DNA of 64,000 nucleotides from a virus (lineage: Duplodnaviria; Caudoviricetes). Each line of letters opens with the position of its first letter. The first letter of the stretch is position 1. The notes below the pieces were generated by a model. It was not told the origin of the DNA. It saw nothing but the letters and a program-made list of their open reading frames with translations, and did not search any database. Shown here piece by piece: positions 7,996-59,539 of this stretch. The position numbers and the translations under genes were made by a program. The DNA lies in the IMG/VR virus record IMGVR_UViG_3300025653_000030, positions 10,500-74,499 of that record; one strand, 5' to 3'.

Positions 7996-8010
7996 TAAAT
8001 TAACTCTTCT

Positions 8011-8019
8011 ATATTTATA
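8011..8019 (+). promoter_or_regulatory. late-type promoter motif ATATTTATA
   Basis: Exact intergenic copy upstream of 8039. Confidence 0.6.
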
Positions 8020-8038
8020 TTCGTAAAGATGTTACTTT

Positions 8039-10474: not shown

Positions 10475-10560
10475 GCCAAAGTGGTGGAACTGGTAGACAC
10501 GAGGGACTTAAAATCCCTTGAACAGTAATGTTCGTGTGGGTTCGATTCCCACCTTTGGTA
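10475..10560 (+). tRNA. tRNA-Leu (anticodon TAA)
   Basis: Acceptor GCCAAAG/CTTTGGT, arm AGGGA-CTTAAAA-TCCCT, long variable arm. Confidence 0.95.
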
Positions 10561-13758: not shown

Positions 13759-13780
13759 TTCAAAAATTTTTCGTATATTT
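13751..13780 (+). promoter_or_regulatory. early-type promoter TTGT-N17-CGTATATTT
   Basis: Same spacing as the other copies. Confidence 0.75.
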
Positions 13781-13789
13781 ACATAGTAA

Positions 13790-28157: not shown

Positions 28158-28187
28158 TTGGAATTGTAAAATAATTTTCGTATATTT
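28158..28187 (+). promoter_or_regulatory. early-type promoter TTGG-N17-CGTATATTT(G)
   Basis: Consensus copy containing the full TAnnTTTG. Confidence 0.8.
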
Positions 28188-28206
28188 GTATAACAAATAG
28201 TTTAAA

Positions 28207-36643: not shown

Positions 36644-36660
36644 ATAAAAATGATAAAGAT

Positions 36661-36669
36661 ATATTTATA
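36661..36669 (+). promoter_or_regulatory. late-type promoter motif ATATTTATA
   Basis: Exact intergenic copy. Confidence 0.6.
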
Positions 36670-36688
36670 TTAAGAACAATAGATTTCA

Positions 36689-51637: not shown

Positions 51638-51645
51638 ATTTCAAT

Positions 51646-51654
51646 ATATTTATA
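51646..51654 (+). promoter_or_regulatory. late-type promoter motif ATATTTATA
   Basis: Exact copy right after the terminator. Confidence 0.65.
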
Positions 51655-51672
51655 TAGAGGAGTAATAACTAT

Positions 51673-53274: not shown

Positions 53275-53853
53275 TTGGGCTTAATTAAAAACAATGCTCA
53301 GAAATGGGCATTTATTCACATACCAAAGACTGGCGGAACTTCACTAACTTCTATAATACAAAATATAGAAGGTAGTGAACTCGTTGCCGTCCATGACTCA
53401 ATAAGAGTATTTGAAGATGTTTCTGACTTCTTCATATTTACTATTGTGAGAAATCCATTTACAAGGATAGCATCTGCTTATTCTCACCGGCTCCGAAAAA
53501 ATGAGTATAAAAAATCATTCGGAGAGTTTATAACAGAATTGAGTGAAAATCATTTAGATTTGATTCCTCAAAGTTATTATATCAATGCGGGTAAAGATGA
53601 AAACAAAGAAGTTTCATTTATAGCAAAATATGAGAACTATACACACGACATACAAAAGATATTAAAAAAGATTAATCATCGTTCTTCTATACCTCATTTA
53701 AACAGAAATCCAATATATGATAAACATCCCCACTTGAATCAAGAAAAGTTTTACAGAAACTTATATAGTCAAGATTGGATGATTGAAAATATATTAGAAA
53801 GGTATAAGGATGACTTCAAGATTTTTAACTATGAGTTGGACTTACCAAGGTAG
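53275..53853 (+). CDS. sulfotransferase (Sulfotransfer_2-like)
   Basis: FIHIPKTGGTS (5'-PSB), VRNPFTRIASAY (3'-PB); TTG start. Confidence 0.88.
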   Translation: MGLIKNNAQKWAFIHIPKTGGTSLTSIIQNIEGSELVAVHDSIRVFEDVSDFFIFTIVRNPFTRIASAYSHRLRKNEYKKSFGEFITELSENHLDLIPQSYYINAGKDENKEVSFIAKYENYTHDIQKILKKINHRSSIPHLNRNPIYDKHPHLNQEKFYRNLYSQDWMIENILERYKDDFKIFNYELDLPR

Positions 53854-54283
53854 ACCTATAACAGAAATATCTGATATGCCTGAAGGTACTATTGGATTTA
53901 TATACAAAATAACAAATCACCAAACAGGTGAATATTATATAGGGAAAAAATCCTTATATTCTAAACGAACTTTACCACCACTAAAAGGTTATAAAAGAAA
54001 AAGAAAGGTTATAAAAGAATCTAAATGGTTAGATTATCGTTCTTCAAATACTTCAGTTCAGTTGTGGTTTCACGAAAGCGAAGCTGCAAAATTAGAAGGA
54101 AATAACGATAAAATAAACGATAGTTTAGAATTAAAAATACTAAGATTCTGCAGTACCCCAAAATCCTTAACTTATTACGAAGTAGAAGAATTATTCCAAC
54201 ATAGAGTGTTATCTGATGAATTATCACTCAATGATAATATTTTGGGAAAATTTTTTAGAAAAGACTTGGATATTACGGAATAA
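53831..54283 (+). CDS. GIY-YIG-family nuclease-like protein
   Basis: GFIYKITN…YYIGKK; start moved to MSWTY. Confidence 0.7.
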   Translation: MSWTYQGRPITEISDMPEGTIGFIYKITNHQTGEYYIGKKSLYSKRTLPPLKGYKRKRKVIKESKWLDYRSSNTSVQLWFHESEAAKLEGNNDKINDSLELKILRFCSTPKSLTYYEVEELFQHRVLSDELSLNDNILGKFFRKDLDITE

Positions 54284-54295
54284 TTTCGTATATTT
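54266..54295 (+). promoter_or_regulatory. early-type promoter TTGG-N17-CGTATATTT(G)
   Basis: Consensus copy upstream of primase. Confidence 0.8.
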
Positions 54296-54315
54296 GTATT
54301 GTTAAAAGTATAATT

Positions 54316-55260
54316 ATGCTCTCACACCACGAGAAACAACAGGTTATAAACATATTAGATGATGTGTTGGGTCCTGGTACATCTATGAAAAATGATGAAC
54401 AGGCACACTATTGTCCCTTTTGTCATCACCATAAAAAAAAGTTACAAATTAACTTAAAAACTCAAAAATGGCATTGTTGGGTTTGTGATGCAAAAGGAAA
54501 AAGAATCAACAGATTACTTAAAAGACTTCATGTAGATTCTCGTAGATTAAAACAAATTTATGAGATTTATGGTGATGATTATGTAGTTTATTCGAAAGAT
54601 ACCGAAGATGAAAAGGTAGAACTTAGGTTACCTAATGAGTTTCAATCACTGTTAAAAGTACCAAAGGGTAAGATAAATCCTGTGTACAGAAAGGCTCTTA
54701 AGTATGCTGAAGATAGAGGTATTACTAAAGAAGATATTACAAAGTATAATATCGGTTATTGCGATTCTGGTCATTATGCCAATCGTATTATTATTCCATC
54801 TTATGATTCTGATAATAGACTCAATTACTTCATCGCGAGGTCTGTATTTGCTGAGGAAAAATTTAAGTATAAAAATCCACCAGTATCGAAAAATGTTATC
54901 ATGTTCGAAAACCAAATAAATTGGGATGAGCCTATAACTTTAGTAGAAGGTGTATTTGATGCAATGGCGGTGAAGAGAAATGCCATTCCTATATTGGGTA
55001 AGTTTGTTCCTAAAAAGTTAAATGATGCTATATTTAAAAATGGAGTAAAGAGTGTTAACATCCTACTCGATGAAGATGCTCAACAAGAAGCGTTACGATA
55101 CACTATGCAATTTACCAATCAAGGTATAAAGACAAAAAATATTATTCCATCTGATAAAGATGCATCTGAAATGGGATTCTCAGAAGTAAATTCAAAACTA
55201 AAAGAAACAGAAGAAACTGGCTTTAGTGATATCATATCACAAAAGCTAAAAGGGTTATGA
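54316..55260 (+). CDS. DNA primase (DnaG-type, zinc finger plus TOPRIM)
   Basis: CPFCHH…WHCWVC, RIIIP, NYFIAR, VEGVFDA, LDEDA, KDASE. Confidence 0.92.
   Translation: MLSHHEKQQVINILDDVLGPGTSMKNDEQAHYCPFCHHHKKKLQINLKTQKWHCWVCDAKGKRINRLLKRLHVDSRRLKQIYEIYGDDYVVYSKDTEDEKVELRLPNEFQSLLKVPKGKINPVYRKALKYAEDRGITKEDITKYNIGYCDSGHYANRIIIPSYDSDNRLNYFIARSVFAEEKFKYKNPPVSKNVIMFENQINWDEPITLVEGVFDAMAVKRNAIPILGKFVPKKLNDAIFKNGVKSVNILLDEDAQQEALRYTMQFTNQGIKTKNIIPSDKDASEMGFSEVNSKLKETEETGFSDIISQKLKGL
54704..54919 (+). CDS. candidate overprinted single-pass membrane microprotein inside primase (+1 frame)
   Basis: 71 aa with a ~28-residue uncharged hydrophobic helix; host-gene codons here almost all end in T/C. Confidence 0.4.
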   Translation: MLKIEVLLKKILQSIISVIAILVIMPIVLLFHLMILIIDSITSSRGLYLLRKNLSIKIHQYRKMLSCSKTK

Positions 55261-56375
55261 TTCATTTGATACCACATCACATTAAAAAGGGTAGTTATGC
55301 TCCTTGGTATTCTTTAATTGAATTTAAAGATGATGTTATTATACATAAGTTTGATAATAAACTTGAAATAGAAAGAGCAAAATTCGATAATGGAAATTTA
55401 CCTTATTACAATGAACTTGTAAATCAAATAACAAAAATAAATCCAAATATTAATGATACTGTTATTTGTGATGTTCAGTATTTTCCAACTGAAGAACCAT
55501 ATGACTTACAGAATACATTAAAAGAAATATCTAACAAATTTAAAATTAAAATTGTAAGTGTAGATGATGATAATAGACAATCATATGAAGATACTGAATT
55601 CTATACAATATTCTCTAATAAGTTTCAAACAGATGTACTTAGTAAAACTTATAATTTAAATTATTATAGATATAGAGCTGCCAAAGAAGATTACTTTAGT
55701 TCTATTCAAAATATAGTACCACATTTTTGGGGTAACTTAAGACAGAAAAAATGTAACTTAATTATAGGAGTAGATAAGATTGAAAGATTAGAAATTTTTA
55801 AGTACACACATAACATAGGATTAGATAAAGAAACTTATCTTGCATATAGTGGATTTACATCTAACTATGATGATAGTGAAATTAGTCCAAAGTTAAGAGA
55901 ATGGAAAGGTAAAAACATACCAACAATATTAGATACTTCATTCAAAAAAAGTCAAGAGGGAACTGTTAATCCCCAAATACCACCGATTCCATTTTGTTTA
56001 AACAGCTATGTAAGCTGTATTATGGAAACACAAATATTAGAAAAACCATTTGTTCATCTAAGTGAAAAATCGTGGAATCCATTTATATCAATGAATATAC
56101 CATTGATACTTGGAAGTGAAGGAATAAATGATTATTTAAAAGAAATAGGATTTTGGATGGCTAATGATTTATTTGATTTATCATTTGTAAAAGGTAAAGC
56201 AAATATACTAAAACAATATAAATCTAATTTAGATATAATTAATAAAATGAGTAAATTAGAATTACATGATTACTATACAAACAACTATCGTAGTATTGAG
56301 CGTAATTATAATTTGATGGGAAAACAAAAGTTTGTTTATGATAGTAAAAATTATAAACAACCAAACTATAAATAA
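55257..56375 (+). CDS. glycosyltransferase-like protein (GT10-like C-terminus)
   Basis: SCIMETQ…LSEKSWNPF…IPLILG…GFW; paralogous to 12844. Confidence 0.5.
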   Translation: MIHLIPHHIKKGSYAPWYSLIEFKDDVIIHKFDNKLEIERAKFDNGNLPYYNELVNQITKINPNINDTVICDVQYFPTEEPYDLQNTLKEISNKFKIKIVSVDDDNRQSYEDTEFYTIFSNKFQTDVLSKTYNLNYYRYRAAKEDYFSSIQNIVPHFWGNLRQKKCNLIIGVDKIERLEIFKYTHNIGLDKETYLAYSGFTSNYDDSEISPKLREWKGKNIPTILDTSFKKSQEGTVNPQIPPIPFCLNSYVSCIMETQILEKPFVHLSEKSWNPFISMNIPLILGSEGINDYLKEIGFWMANDLFDLSFVKGKANILKQYKSNLDIINKMSKLELHDYYTNNYRSIERNYNLMGKQKFVYDSKNYKQPNYK

Positions 56376-56380
56376 AGTTT

Positions 56381-59300
56381 ATGATAATTAATAAAGTTTA
56401 TCACTTGGCAGATTTACATATTCGTAATCTCCAAAGACACAAAGAATACAGACAAGTATTCAAAAAATTCTTAAAACAAGTAAAAGAAGATAAAATCGAG
56501 GATTCCCTCATTTATATTGCTGGTGATATTGCTCATGCTAAAACTGAGATGTCACCCGAACTCGTACACGAAATTAGTTGGTTTCTCACCGAGTGTGCGA
56601 AGTTAAGAGAAACTGTGTTAATCACAGGTAATCATGATTGTAATTTAAATAATTCCCACAGACTAGATGTACTCACACCAATTATCGAAAATCTTGGAAA
56701 TAATCGAATTCATTATCTTCGTGATACTGGTATCTATAATATCCATAATCTTACTTTTGTTGTCTATTCTATATTGGATGACAAGGAAAATTGGCCTAAA
56801 GGAGATACCGTTGATGGAGAAAATAAAATCGTTTTATTTCACGGACCAGTAAACAAAGCCCAAACTGATATAGGCTATACCGTTTCTTCAAACTCATTTC
56901 AAGTAGATATGTTCGATGGATACGATATGGCCATGTTGGGTGATATCCATAAGAGACAAACATTCGGACCTGGTTATGAACACATTGCTTATGCAGGTTC
57001 AATGATTCAACAGAATCATGGTGAGTTATTAGAGAATCATGGTTATTTACTTTGGGATATTCCAACACGAACTTTTACAGAACACCATATCCACAATGAT
57101 TATGGATTCTTAACAGTTGATGTAGTTGATGGTAAGATACCTCAATGGGTGTATGATGAAGTTGGTACTAAACTTCCAAAGTATCCAAGATTAAGATTGA
57201 GATTCACAAGAACAGAAGCAAGTGATATGAAGAGAAGAATAACTGAACTAAAGAAGTTATTCAAAGTTGCTGAAGTTACTGTAACGAGAACCGATACAAT
57301 CGGACAACTAAAAACAAATCAAAAGGTAAATAAAAATATTGTTGGTGATGTTAAAAACGAAACTTTCCAAAACCAACTCATCAGAGATTACTTAGAAAGA
57401 CAGTATCTATTAGAAGATGAAGAGTTAGATAGGATTGCGGAAATCAACTCAGAGTTAAATGGACAGATAGATGATTCAGATTCAGCAGGTAACATCTTAT
57501 GGACACCTAAAGAGTTTGAGTTCTCTAATATGTTCTCTTATGGTGAAGGTAACAAAGTAAGGTTTAATAAGGCTCAAGGTATCGTTGGTATCTTCGCTCC
57601 AAATGCCTCTGGTAAATCCTCTCTCTTCGATGCATTATCATTTTGTATATATGATAAGACTTCTCGTACAAACATCTCTAAGAACATCTTAAACAACCGT
57701 AAAACGAACTTCTATTGTAAGTTTAACTTCGAGATAGATGGAATTGATTATTATATTGAAAGAAGAGCCAAATATGTTAGAAAACAAACATCGGTTAAAG
57801 TAGATGTAGATTTTTGGAGAGATAACAATGGAGTTATAGAATCACTCAATGGTGAACAAAGAAAAGATACTAATAAAGAAATAGAAAAGTACTTAGGTAA
57901 GTTCGAGGATTTTGTTTTAACTGCACTATCCTTACAAGGAAATAATGCACTATTCATTGATAAATCACAATCGGAAAGAAAAGAAATCTTATCTCAATTC
58001 ATTGGTGTAAACATCTTTGATAAATTATATCAAAAGGCTGCTGATGAGAATAGAGACAATGCAACACTTATCAGAAAATTTAAGAGTGATGATTTTACGA
58101 CAAAATTAGCTCAAATCGACACTGATTTAAAAACAAACAAAAACGAATATAAGTTGTTAGAGGTTTCTCAAAAATCTTTAAAGGACGAAGAAGATGTATT
58201 GAACAAAAGGATTATATCCCTAAACGAGAAAATCGTTAAGTTGAATGCTGATAGTGGAGTTTCAATCGAAGAGTTAGAAAAAAGATTGAAAAACCTCGAA
58301 ACCAAAAAGGATGGGGTTTCAACCACAAAAGGTTCGGTTCAAGAAAGAATCACCTTTAGAGAAGAACAACAAATTACTTTAGAAGAAATCTTAGATAAGT
58401 TTGATGAAGAAGATTTAGAAGAAGGAATTACAAAATTAAAAAGATTAAGAAAAGATTTATCTAACATTGATTCTGAAATAGAAAAAATTAATATTAAGTT
58501 AGAATCTTTATACGAAAGAAAACAGCACTTAGATTCACACAAATACAATGAAGAGTGTGATATCTGTATGGAAAATTCTAAATCTATTTTAGATACAAAA
58601 TCTGAAGTAGAATCAAAGATAAAGGAGTTGGAAGAATCTTTACAACACAATGAAAAAGAAAAGTTAGATTTAAACATTGAGATTGATTCTTTGAAAGGAT
58701 ATGAAGATGAGTGGGATAAGTATAAAGATGCTAAAGATAAAGAGGATAAATTAGATAGAGAAATATCCCAACTTATCAACAAGTTATCAACAACCGAAAC
58801 TGAAGAAATCCGATTAGATACACAAATTGCTCAACAGCAACAACTTATCGAAGAATATTATAAGAATGAGAAACAAATTCAGAAGAATAAAGAAATCAGA
58901 GATGAGATTAGTGGAGTAAGAGAAAAACTTACAATTATTAAGGATGAACTCAAAGGAGTAAATACAGATATCCTTAAGTTAAATGGTAAAGTTTCTGCTC
59001 TTCAAAATCAAAAAGAAACAATCGAAGATAGAATTAATGAAGTAAAAGAATTAGAATCACAAAGTAGATTGTTTGATTTCTATCTGAATGCATTATCTAA
59101 AGATGGTGTATCTTATGAATTGATTGAAAAGGCATTACCAATGATTGAAGGTGAGGTAAATAATATCTTAGCTCAAATCGTAGAGTTTGGAATGCAATTA
59201 GAGATTGATGGTAAGAACATTAATGCTTACTTAGTGTATGGAGACCAAAGATGGAGTTTGGAAATGTGTAGTGGTATGGAAAGATTTATTAGTGGTTTAG

Positions 59301-59539
59301 CAATTAGAGTTGCTTTAATCAATGTATGTAATCTACCAAGACCTAATTTCCTTGTGATAGATGAAGGATTTGGTACATTAGATAGTGAGAACCTACAATC
59401 TTTATTTATGTTGTTTACATATCTTAAAACTCAGTTTGATTTCGTTATGATTATTTCACATATCGATTCAATGAGAGATGTTGTAGATGGTCTTATTGAG
59501 ATAAAGAAAGAAAAAGGATTTTCCCAAGTTAAGTTTTAG
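56381..59539 (+). CDS. fused SbcD/Mre11 nuclease - SbcC/Rad50 ATPase (gp47-gp46-like)
   Basis: HLADLH, GDIAH, GNHD, GDIH; Walker A APNASGKSS; zinc hook CDIC; CSGME; Walker B IDEGFGTLD; one continuous ORF. Confidence 0.92.
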   Translation: MIINKVYHLADLHIRNLQRHKEYRQVFKKFLKQVKEDKIEDSLIYIAGDIAHAKTEMSPELVHEISWFLTECAKLRETVLITGNHDCNLNNSHRLDVLTPIIENLGNNRIHYLRDTGIYNIHNLTFVVYSILDDKENWPKGDTVDGENKIVLFHGPVNKAQTDIGYTVSSNSFQVDMFDGYDMAMLGDIHKRQTFGPGYEHIAYAGSMIQQNHGELLENHGYLLWDIPTRTFTEHHIHNDYGFLTVDVVDGKIPQWVYDEVGTKLPKYPRLRLRFTRTEASDMKRRITELKKLFKVAEVTVTRTDTIGQLKTNQKVNKNIVGDVKNETFQNQLIRDYLERQYLLEDEELDRIAEINSELNGQIDDSDSAGNILWTPKEFEFSNMFSYGEGNKVRFNKAQGIVGIFAPNASGKSSLFDALSFCIYDKTSRTNISKNILNNRKTNFYCKFNFEIDGIDYYIERRAKYVRKQTSVKVDVDFWRDNNGVIESLNGEQRKDTNKEIEKYLGKFEDFVLTALSLQGNNALFIDKSQSERKEILSQFIGVNIFDKLYQKAADENRDNATLIRKFKSDDFTTKLAQIDTDLKTNKNEYKLLEVSQKSLKDEEDVLNKRIISLNEKIVKLNADSGVSIEELEKRLKNLETKKDGVSTTKGSVQERITFREEQQITLEEILDKFDEEDLEEGITKLKRLRKDLSNIDSEIEKINIKLESLYERKQHLDSHKYNEECDICMENSKSILDTKSEVESKIKELEESLQHNEKEKLDLNIEIDSLKGYEDEWDKYKDAKDKEDKLDREISQLINKLSTTETEEIRLDTQIAQQQQLIEEYYKNEKQIQKNKEIRDEISGVREKLTIIKDELKGVNTDILKLNGKVSALQNQKETIEDRINEVKELESQSRLFDFYLNALSKDGVSYELIEKALPMIEGEVNNILAQIVEFGMQLEIDGKNINAYLVYGDQRWSLEMCSGMERFISGLAIRVALINVCNLPRPNFLVIDEGFGTLDSENLQSLFMLFTYLKTQFDFVMIISHIDSMRDVVDGLIEIKKEKGFSQVKF
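56667..56852 (+). CDS. candidate overprinted single-pass membrane microprotein inside the nuclease domain (+1 frame)
   Basis: 61 aa, TM FIIFVILVSIISIILLLLSILYWM then RK; 21 consecutive T/C-ending host codons. Confidence 0.42.
   Translation: MYSHQLSKILEIIEFIIFVILVSIISIILLLLSILYWMTRKIGLKEIPLMEKIKSFYFTDQ

Follow-up and report, generated by a model that had tools for sequence, protein, structure and literature searches.

Locus and host gene

The window analysed here is the 64,000-nucleotide (nt) stretch that forms the last 64 kb of a 74.5-kb phage contig with a guanine and cytosine content of 31% (IMG/VR record IMGVR_UViG_3300025653_000030, positions 10,500 to 74,499; positions given below are those of the window). 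At 56381..59539 on the plus strand it carries a gene for a single polypeptide of 1052 amino acids (aa) in which SbcD and SbcC are fused. Within this gene, on the same strand and in the +1 frame, lies a short open reading frame (ORF; 56667..56852), which is the subject of this report and probably is a real overprinted gene for a membrane microprotein, as far as its pattern of conservation allows this to be judged.

The N-terminal part of the host protein is a Metallophos/SbcD domain (residues 5-191; PF00149, 36.4 bits with a cutoff of 21.5), and SbcC/Rad50 modules were recognised as AAA_23 (PF13476, 43.2 bits, cutoff 27) and phrog_77 (E 4e-60). The features of SbcD/Mre11-SbcC/Rad50 proteins, a calcineurin-like phosphoesterase, a GNHD motif (SbcD residues 83-86, immediately 5' of the nested start) and a Rad50-type ATPase with coiled coil, were all found, and the gene that hosts the nested ORF belongs to the ancient SbcD/SbcC families. 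SbcD and SbcC were also fused as one polypeptide in all 52 full-length relatives, with lengths of 1043-1097 aa.

Nested reading frame in the window

The nested ORF (P0001; 56667..56852, plus strand) runs from ATG to TAA over 61 aa and starts 286 nt into the host gene, which places it in the +1 frame. Its peptide has a short N-terminus, a very hydrophobic stretch of ~29 residues and then a basic juxtamembrane patch, and the Kyte-Doolittle (KD) maximum over 19 residues is 3.36. The single hydrophobic helix is encoded at 56691..56777 (plus strand, ~residues 9-37), and the R/K-K-I-G patch that follows it owes its sequence to K-E-N-W, conserved residues of SbcD.

A first-pass annotation had described this ORF with its one helix, together with a run of 21 consecutive pyrimidine-ending SbcD codons at 56708..56770 (plus strand; 18 T, 3 C), and both descriptions were found to be exact. 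It had further noted that the run uses CTT, CGT, ACT, ATC and GGT in place of codons that are common in this genome. This was correct for Leu (CTT 18% vs TTA 57%), Arg (CGT 7% vs AGA 79%), Thr (ACT 38% vs ACA 51%) and Ile (ATC 13%) and mistaken for Gly, where GGT is already the commonest codon in the genome (54%).

The run is the longest of its kind in the 74.5-kb contig. In nine of the 21 codons the encoded residue (His, Tyr, Asp, Asn or Phe) allows only T or C at the end; for this protein sequence and the codon usage of the genome, the probability that all 21 end in a pyrimidine is 9.6e-6. When synonymous codons were resampled from genome usage, a longest run of at least 21 codons had a genome-wide P of 0.013-0.015, and its length is thus beyond the genome-wide expectation. 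The second-longest run (17 codons at 54745) lies inside a similar ORF nested in the primase gene, described below, and the joint P of the two runs is 0.00085. The scan for nested +1 ORFs that had been proposed with the first-pass annotation gave a modest excess of transmembrane (TM)-like cases, 2 genome-wide against 0.33 expected under synonymous resampling (P = 0.043), and +1 nested ORFs of at least 60 aa of any type numbered 4 against 2.2 expected (P = 0.16).

The third position of the host codon is the second position of the nested codon, so that a T/C run is automatically free of +1 stops and encodes xTx or xCx residues, which are hydrophobic or small. Because such a run forces an open and hydrophobic +1 frame, the run, the ORF and the helix count as one observation and not as three. 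Taken alone, the window is only modestly beyond chance and suggestive.

Conservation of the open frame among relatives

At least ~600 homologous loci are present in IMG/VR, of which 157 were fetched and analysed. These yielded 89 unique N-terminal sequences and 45 non-redundant full-length genes, with protein identities of 60-97%. The SbcD residues over the overlap (R-I-H-Y-L-R-D-T-G-V-Y-N-I-H-N-L-T-F-V-V-Y-S-I-L-D) hardly vary from one homologue to another. From the same ATG, the +1 frame is intact for 48-61 codons in 54 of the 89 unique sequences (called intact lineages below), and in the others (broken lineages) it is riddled with TAA, TAG and TGA; the conservation in related SbcD genes that the first-pass annotation had made decisive for its reading is thus present. 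Conservation is limited to the first ~48 codons of the nested ORF, and several lineages stop at codon 49. In L023 the nested ATG is naturally replaced by ACG, and in natural broken lineages Leu codon 104, CTT in the window, is found as TTA, a synonymous form for SbcD that introduces a +1 stop.

Among the 45 non-redundant full-length homologues, the 48-codon +1 window that begins at the ATG is stop-free in 34 (76%), and the best other real 48-codon window of the host gene is open in at most 20% of sequences. Given its own amino acids and codon usage, a sequence has a probability of 0.0005-0.004 (about 0.002) of keeping 48 codons open. Conservation of the open frame therefore exceeds what the host protein and its codon usage predict.

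In trees built without the overlap columns, intact ORFs are found in at least 5 deep clades, and the most divergent sequences (L143/L157, L151, L134) are without the nested ORF. An outgroup-rooted tree contains at least 7 changes of state, at least 4 of them forced by well-supported branches, and the distribution fits one origin followed by repeated loss and some recombination. No compensating small TM gene was found near the locus in the lineages that lost the ORF.

A separate observation concerns two related loci, L061 and L062. Over their whole length these genes share ~68% identity with the window protein and show ~45% synonymous differences in the flanks, with zero synonymous differences at codons ~100-130 (homologous to window ~56680-56790). 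This looks like a short recombination tract by which a window-type copy of the overlap may have been imported.

Probable selection on the overlap

In the helix core of intact lineages, 95.9% (374/390) of the non-forced codons end in T or C, compared with 46.8% in the rest of the gene. The corresponding values for broken lineages are 50.4% and 47.1%, and there the same SbcD amino acids are encoded by A-ending codons instead. Codons with a second base other than T can never make a +1 stop, and these too have T at the third position in 72% of cases in intact lineages, compared with 41% in broken ones and 40% over the remainder of the gene. The Arg of alignment column 113 is encoded by CGT or CGC in 27 of 33 intact lineages and in none of 11 broken ones, CGT making up 7% of Arg codons genome-wide.

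At 4-fold degenerate sites of 12 deep intact lineages, transitions amounted to 0.217 in the region vs 0.099 in the rest of the gene, and transversions to 0.147 vs 0.394. So many T<->C changes with so few transversions imply that time has passed and that purines at the second nested position, which would give a charged or polar residue or a stop, have been removed. Intact lineages had 0.63-0.72 times the expected number of synonymous differences (z about -5), and broken lineages about 1.0-1.1 times; synonymous change in the overlap is reduced or biased where the ORF has been kept and not where it is broken. The encoded helix was also more hydrophobic than a resampled null conditioned on an open frame in 6 of 6 deep lineages (P <0.005 to 0.17).

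Start site

The nested ATG (56667-56669) is centred in a trough of predicted mRNA structure within the start region 56637..56696 on the plus strand. Genes of this phage mostly start in A/U-rich sequence, and the ensemble free energy (dG) from -30 to +30 has a mean of -5.06 kcal/mol at true starts and of -8.96 kcal/mol at internal out-of-frame ATGs. At the nested ATG it is -2.24 kcal/mol, less structured than at 99% of the internal out-of-frame ATGs. Across relatives, the start window has a mean dG of -3.59 in intact and -8.23 in broken lineages, with controls at -8.3 and -8.7 (P = 3e-5, uncorrected for kinship). The trough is centred on the ATG and does not span the pyrimidine run, which argues that it is not a by-product of composition.

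A +1 TAG stands immediately 5' of the ATG in 23 of 33 intact lineages and stop avoidance begins right after the ATG, which together favour initiation at this ATG over a frameshift further upstream. Internal sigma-70-like promoters were not enriched (7 found vs 8.3 expected).

Evaluation of alternative explanations

The nested ORF is enclosed completely by an older gene of the same strand, from which it differs in frame. Its open frame, its pyrimidine third positions and its unstructured ATG window vanish together in the lineages that carry stops, by which codon optimality and RNA structure are ruled out as causes. On these comparative grounds the ORF appears to have been actively preserved by evolution and is very probably a real gene. 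The functional overprinted TM microprotein put forward in the first-pass annotation is strongly supported by the openness of the frame, purine avoidance, excess hydrophobicity and the unstructured start, all of which are absent where the frame has decayed.

Several points weigh against this conclusion. The comparisons of intact with broken lineages carry no phylogenetic correction, and recombination, of which the window-like tract of L061/L062 is an instance, blurs the independence of lineages. Open frames obtained by resampling already reach a KD of about 2.0-2.4, and the ATG, a Y-W motif and the basic patch are largely dictated by the conserved SbcD sequence and the genetic code. Equally deep synonymous dips occur in other 21-codon windows of the host gene, and the conclusion therefore rests on the combined tests and not on the synonymous-difference statistic alone. 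No Shine-Dalgarno motif was found upstream of the nested ATG, as is the case for most genes of this phage. The nested ORF was lost at least 4-7 times and is thus dispensable. No annotated or free-standing homologue was found among the 33-107-aa proteins of a 5.8-billion-protein collection and no paralogue in the contig or the related loci; a weak TM-to-TM similarity was seen to the primase-nested ORF only (E about 0.03-0.16).

It could be argued that forced T/C codons and AT-rich usage opened a hydrophobic +1 frame by chance in an ancestor, and that this frame then spread by descent and recombination with no selection on the peptide. Such an origin agrees with the nine forced codons of the run, with the hydrophobicity that the genetic code gives to xTx codons and that the open resampled frames already show, with the modest size of the genome-wide excess of nested TM ORFs, with the L061/L062 recombinant tract and with the decay of the ORF in many lineages. 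We nevertheless consider it improbable, since the deep intact lineages are near-saturated synonymously elsewhere and have many T<->C changes within the region, yet retain 96% pyrimidine at free codons, since the rare CGT is kept where no stop could arise, and since the start-site trough co-varies with the integrity of an ORF whose chance of being open is about 0.002 per lineage.

A constraint on the nucleotides themselves, in the form of an RNA or DNA element or of SbcD translation kinetics that demand third-base pyrimidines in some lineages, with the ORF incidental, is likewise very doubtful. Synonymous constraint alone leaves its cause unspecified, comparable dips elsewhere in the gene are found without conserved alternative ORFs, and the antisense -0 frame is also open in 27 of 45 sequences, all of which would suit such a constraint. 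The signal, however, begins at the ATG, ends near the stop, excludes +1 stops and raises +1 hydrophobicity. RNA structure was rejected as its cause, no stable fold being predicted (z = -0.13), and an antisense gene was rejected as well, as the openness of the -0 frame follows from avoidance of TTA, CTA and TCA and no -0 ORF of at least 40 aa is present there in the window. Preference for optimal codons at conserved residues (the Akashi effect) was also discarded: pyrimidine-ending codons are unlinked to residue conservation across the host gene (0.46-0.49 in every conservation class), their fraction staying flat at 0.44-0.50 over the conservation classes in both sets of lineages.

The +1 relation of the frames, the missing Shine-Dalgarno motif and the conceivable use of a membrane-anchored nuclease fragment would also agree with a programmed +1 frameshift from the SbcD frame, by which an N-terminal SbcD fragment of ~100 aa would be fused to a membrane anchor. 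This is most unlikely. With the +1 TAG that abuts the ATG in 23 of 33 intact lineages, and a TAA six codons further 5' in the window, hardly any space is left where a shift could occur, and no slippery motif was seen. The ATG also lies at the centre of the structure trough, as true starts do, and the fragment would, moreover, be without phosphoesterase motifs IV-V.

Two further candidates were set aside. At columns ~996-1044 the -1 frame has windows that are open in every sequence, which is trivial, as -1 stops need Tyr, His or Gln codons. An alternative genetic code in the broken lineages was dismissed, the +1 stops including TAA and the host genes being full-length under translation table 11.

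Proposed origin and role

If the nested ORF is a gene, as we consider probable, it would have arisen de novo by overprinting of the SbcD +1 frame in the ancestor of a clade of AT-rich uncultured marine phages, after which selection would have kept it in most descendants and several would have lost it. Ribosomes would start internally on the SbcDC mRNA, at the accessible ATG and independently of a Shine-Dalgarno motif, and would probably make little of the peptide. Its product of 48-61 aa is predicted to insert into the cytoplasmic membrane of the host cell as a single helix and to act through the helix itself, and the positive-inside rule would place the N-terminus outside and the basic C-terminal tail inside.

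The peptide rides on a replication and recombination mRNA, which favours an early or middle membrane effector over a lysis protein. A small membrane effector expressed with the early/middle replication-recombination genes, for example in superinfection exclusion or in the modulation of host membrane proteins, is accordingly the role that we tentatively place first for a real gene, at somewhat less than an even chance. A lysis-related timer or a holin-like function is possible at a clearly lower level, and a part in the membrane anchoring of replication or recombination is an outside candidate.

Scans of Pfam and PHROG gave no family match for the nested peptide. With regard to a holin or pinholin, the peptide has one transmembrane domain and a basic tail, no Pfam or PHROG match was found for it, and no endolysin was seen among the scanned neighbours. 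Holins are so diverse that a missing family match says little against a holin-like action.

A wider proposal, that large marine double-stranded DNA (dsDNA) phages repeatedly make membrane microproteins by overprinting stretches of essential replication and recombination genes that are rich in T at the third position, and that these are functionally tied to their host genes and are not unrelated hitch-hikers, seems unlikely. In this operon it would have happened to SbcD and again to the primase gene, and the products might, for example, anchor or gate the replication and recombination machinery at the membrane, or link DNA metabolism with when membrane events occur.

Comparison with known systems

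The o-spanin gene Rz1 of phage lambda is a small envelope-targeted gene embedded in the +1 frame of Rz and is routinely missed by gene callers (PMC6139136). Like Rz1, the nested ORF belongs to a dsDNA phage and is enclosed completely by a larger gene, to which it is in the +1 frame. Rz1, however, is a Cys-lipidated outer-membrane lipoprotein encoded inside its own functional partner in a lysis cassette, whereas the nested peptide is a plain TM helix, with neither Cys nor lipobox, in a DNA-repair nuclease gene of a replication and recombination operon. Identity with an o-spanin was therefore rejected, both for the lack of Cys and because the host gene is SbcD-SbcC and not an i-spanin gene.

Gene E of phiX174, within gene D, and gene L of MS2, which overlaps the coat and replicase genes, are overprinted +1 genes of de novo origin that encode one hydrophobic helix and are expressed at a low level from the host-gene mRNA. 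They occur in tiny single-stranded DNA or RNA genomes under strong size pressure, in contrast to the large dsDNA phage considered here. Membership of either family was rejected, as neither similarity in sequence nor a hit in Pfam or PHROG was found and the genome is a large dsDNA one; a low-level timer of the E or L type is possible, though less likely than an effector.

The small early membrane proteins Imm, Sp and RI of phage T4 and the small membrane regulators or type I toxins Hok, TisB and Fst of bacteria are 30-100 aa long, with a single hydrophobic helix and a charged tail, and the membrane helix is the part through which action is expected. These are products of free-standing genes, whereas the nested peptide shows no detected homology, antisense RNA or partner, and the likeness is one of analogy and not of membership.

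The nested ORF is a new and unrelated case of the embedded +1-frame kind of phage gene. Its host gene (the SbcD nuclease core) and its class of genome (a large marine phage) are both unusual, and its relatives document upkeep and loss with unusual clarity. Annotation pipelines systematically drop embedded genes, and large dsDNA phages offer few convincing examples, most of them, like Rz1, related to lysis. Dozens of diverged genomes that encode the same nuclease residues with or without a second frame amount to a natural experiment, in which a de novo membrane protein can be followed from its birth through its upkeep to repeated losses, together with its codon-level cost to an essential enzyme gene. 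The nested ORF is a concrete and testable candidate for an unannotated phage membrane effector, and lineage-specific avoidance of third-position purines combined with a start-site accessibility trough provides a recipe for finding more.

Primase-nested ORF

A second +1 nested TM ORF (P0003; 54704..54919, plus strand, 71 aa) lies inside the primase gene (54316..55260). Its likeness to the SbcD-nested ORF, pointed out in the first-pass annotation, is borne out by the same +1 frame, the TM type and a similar pyrimidine signature. It is intact in 37 of 67 unique relatives, and a pyrimidine ends 82% of the free codons in its core, compared with 39% in other parts of the gene and 51% where the ORF is broken. 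Judged by these values it is likely also real. Its ATG lies in structured mRNA (-9.9 kcal/mol).

The two nested ORFs had been suggested to form one system, for which tethering of the replisome to the membrane, exclusion or the timing of lysis were named as roles, all of them speculative. Among the 45 non-redundant genomes, both are present in 24, the SbcD-nested one alone in 9, the primase-nested one alone in 3 and neither in 9. The primase-nested ORF has a distribution that is narrower than, and independent of, that of the SbcD-nested ORF. The two are not strictly co-conserved or co-inherited, so an obligate two-component system is not supported.

Genomic neighbourhood and further observations

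The SbcDC gene is the third of a block ordered primase, a 372-aa gene and SbcDC. Family scans of its neighbours recognised the primase, a GIY-YIG endonuclease and a sulfotransferase, the remaining ones having no family match. The phage is of a large dsDNA class with baseplate genes, and contigs of relatives reach 288 kb. A DNA search of cultured phages brought up no close relative; at the protein level Microcystis phage Mel-JY01 comes nearest, with 38% identity.

In the SbcC coiled-coil part of the host gene, two 21-codon windows, 58400-58462 (codons ~673-693) and 58769-58831 (codons ~796-816), show synonymous deficits with z about -5.4 to -6, as strong as that of the nested-ORF region. At 58769-58831 the deficit is also seen, with observed/expected 0.39, in lineages without the nested ORF. 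Neither place showed a conserved alternative frame; possible causes are a tract of recombination and an element in the RNA or DNA.

The 372-aa gene (55257-56375), whose family is unassigned, varies between primase and SbcDC across the related loci L001-L080; in many relatives the primase directly abuts SbcDC, or a gene of another size (179-418 aa) intervenes. A SegE-like GIY-YIG homing endonuclease gene lies at 53810-54283, just 5' of the primase gene. The variable gene and the adjacent homing endonuclease suggest a hotspot for mobile elements.

A recurrent motif, TCGTATATTTGTAT / TATATTTATAT, was observed 10-30 nt 5' of several gene starts, that of the primase included. It occurs at 54286-54315, 28177-28206 and 13760-13789, with similar sites at 8009-8038, 36659-36688 and 51643-51672, and is probably a phage-specific promoter.

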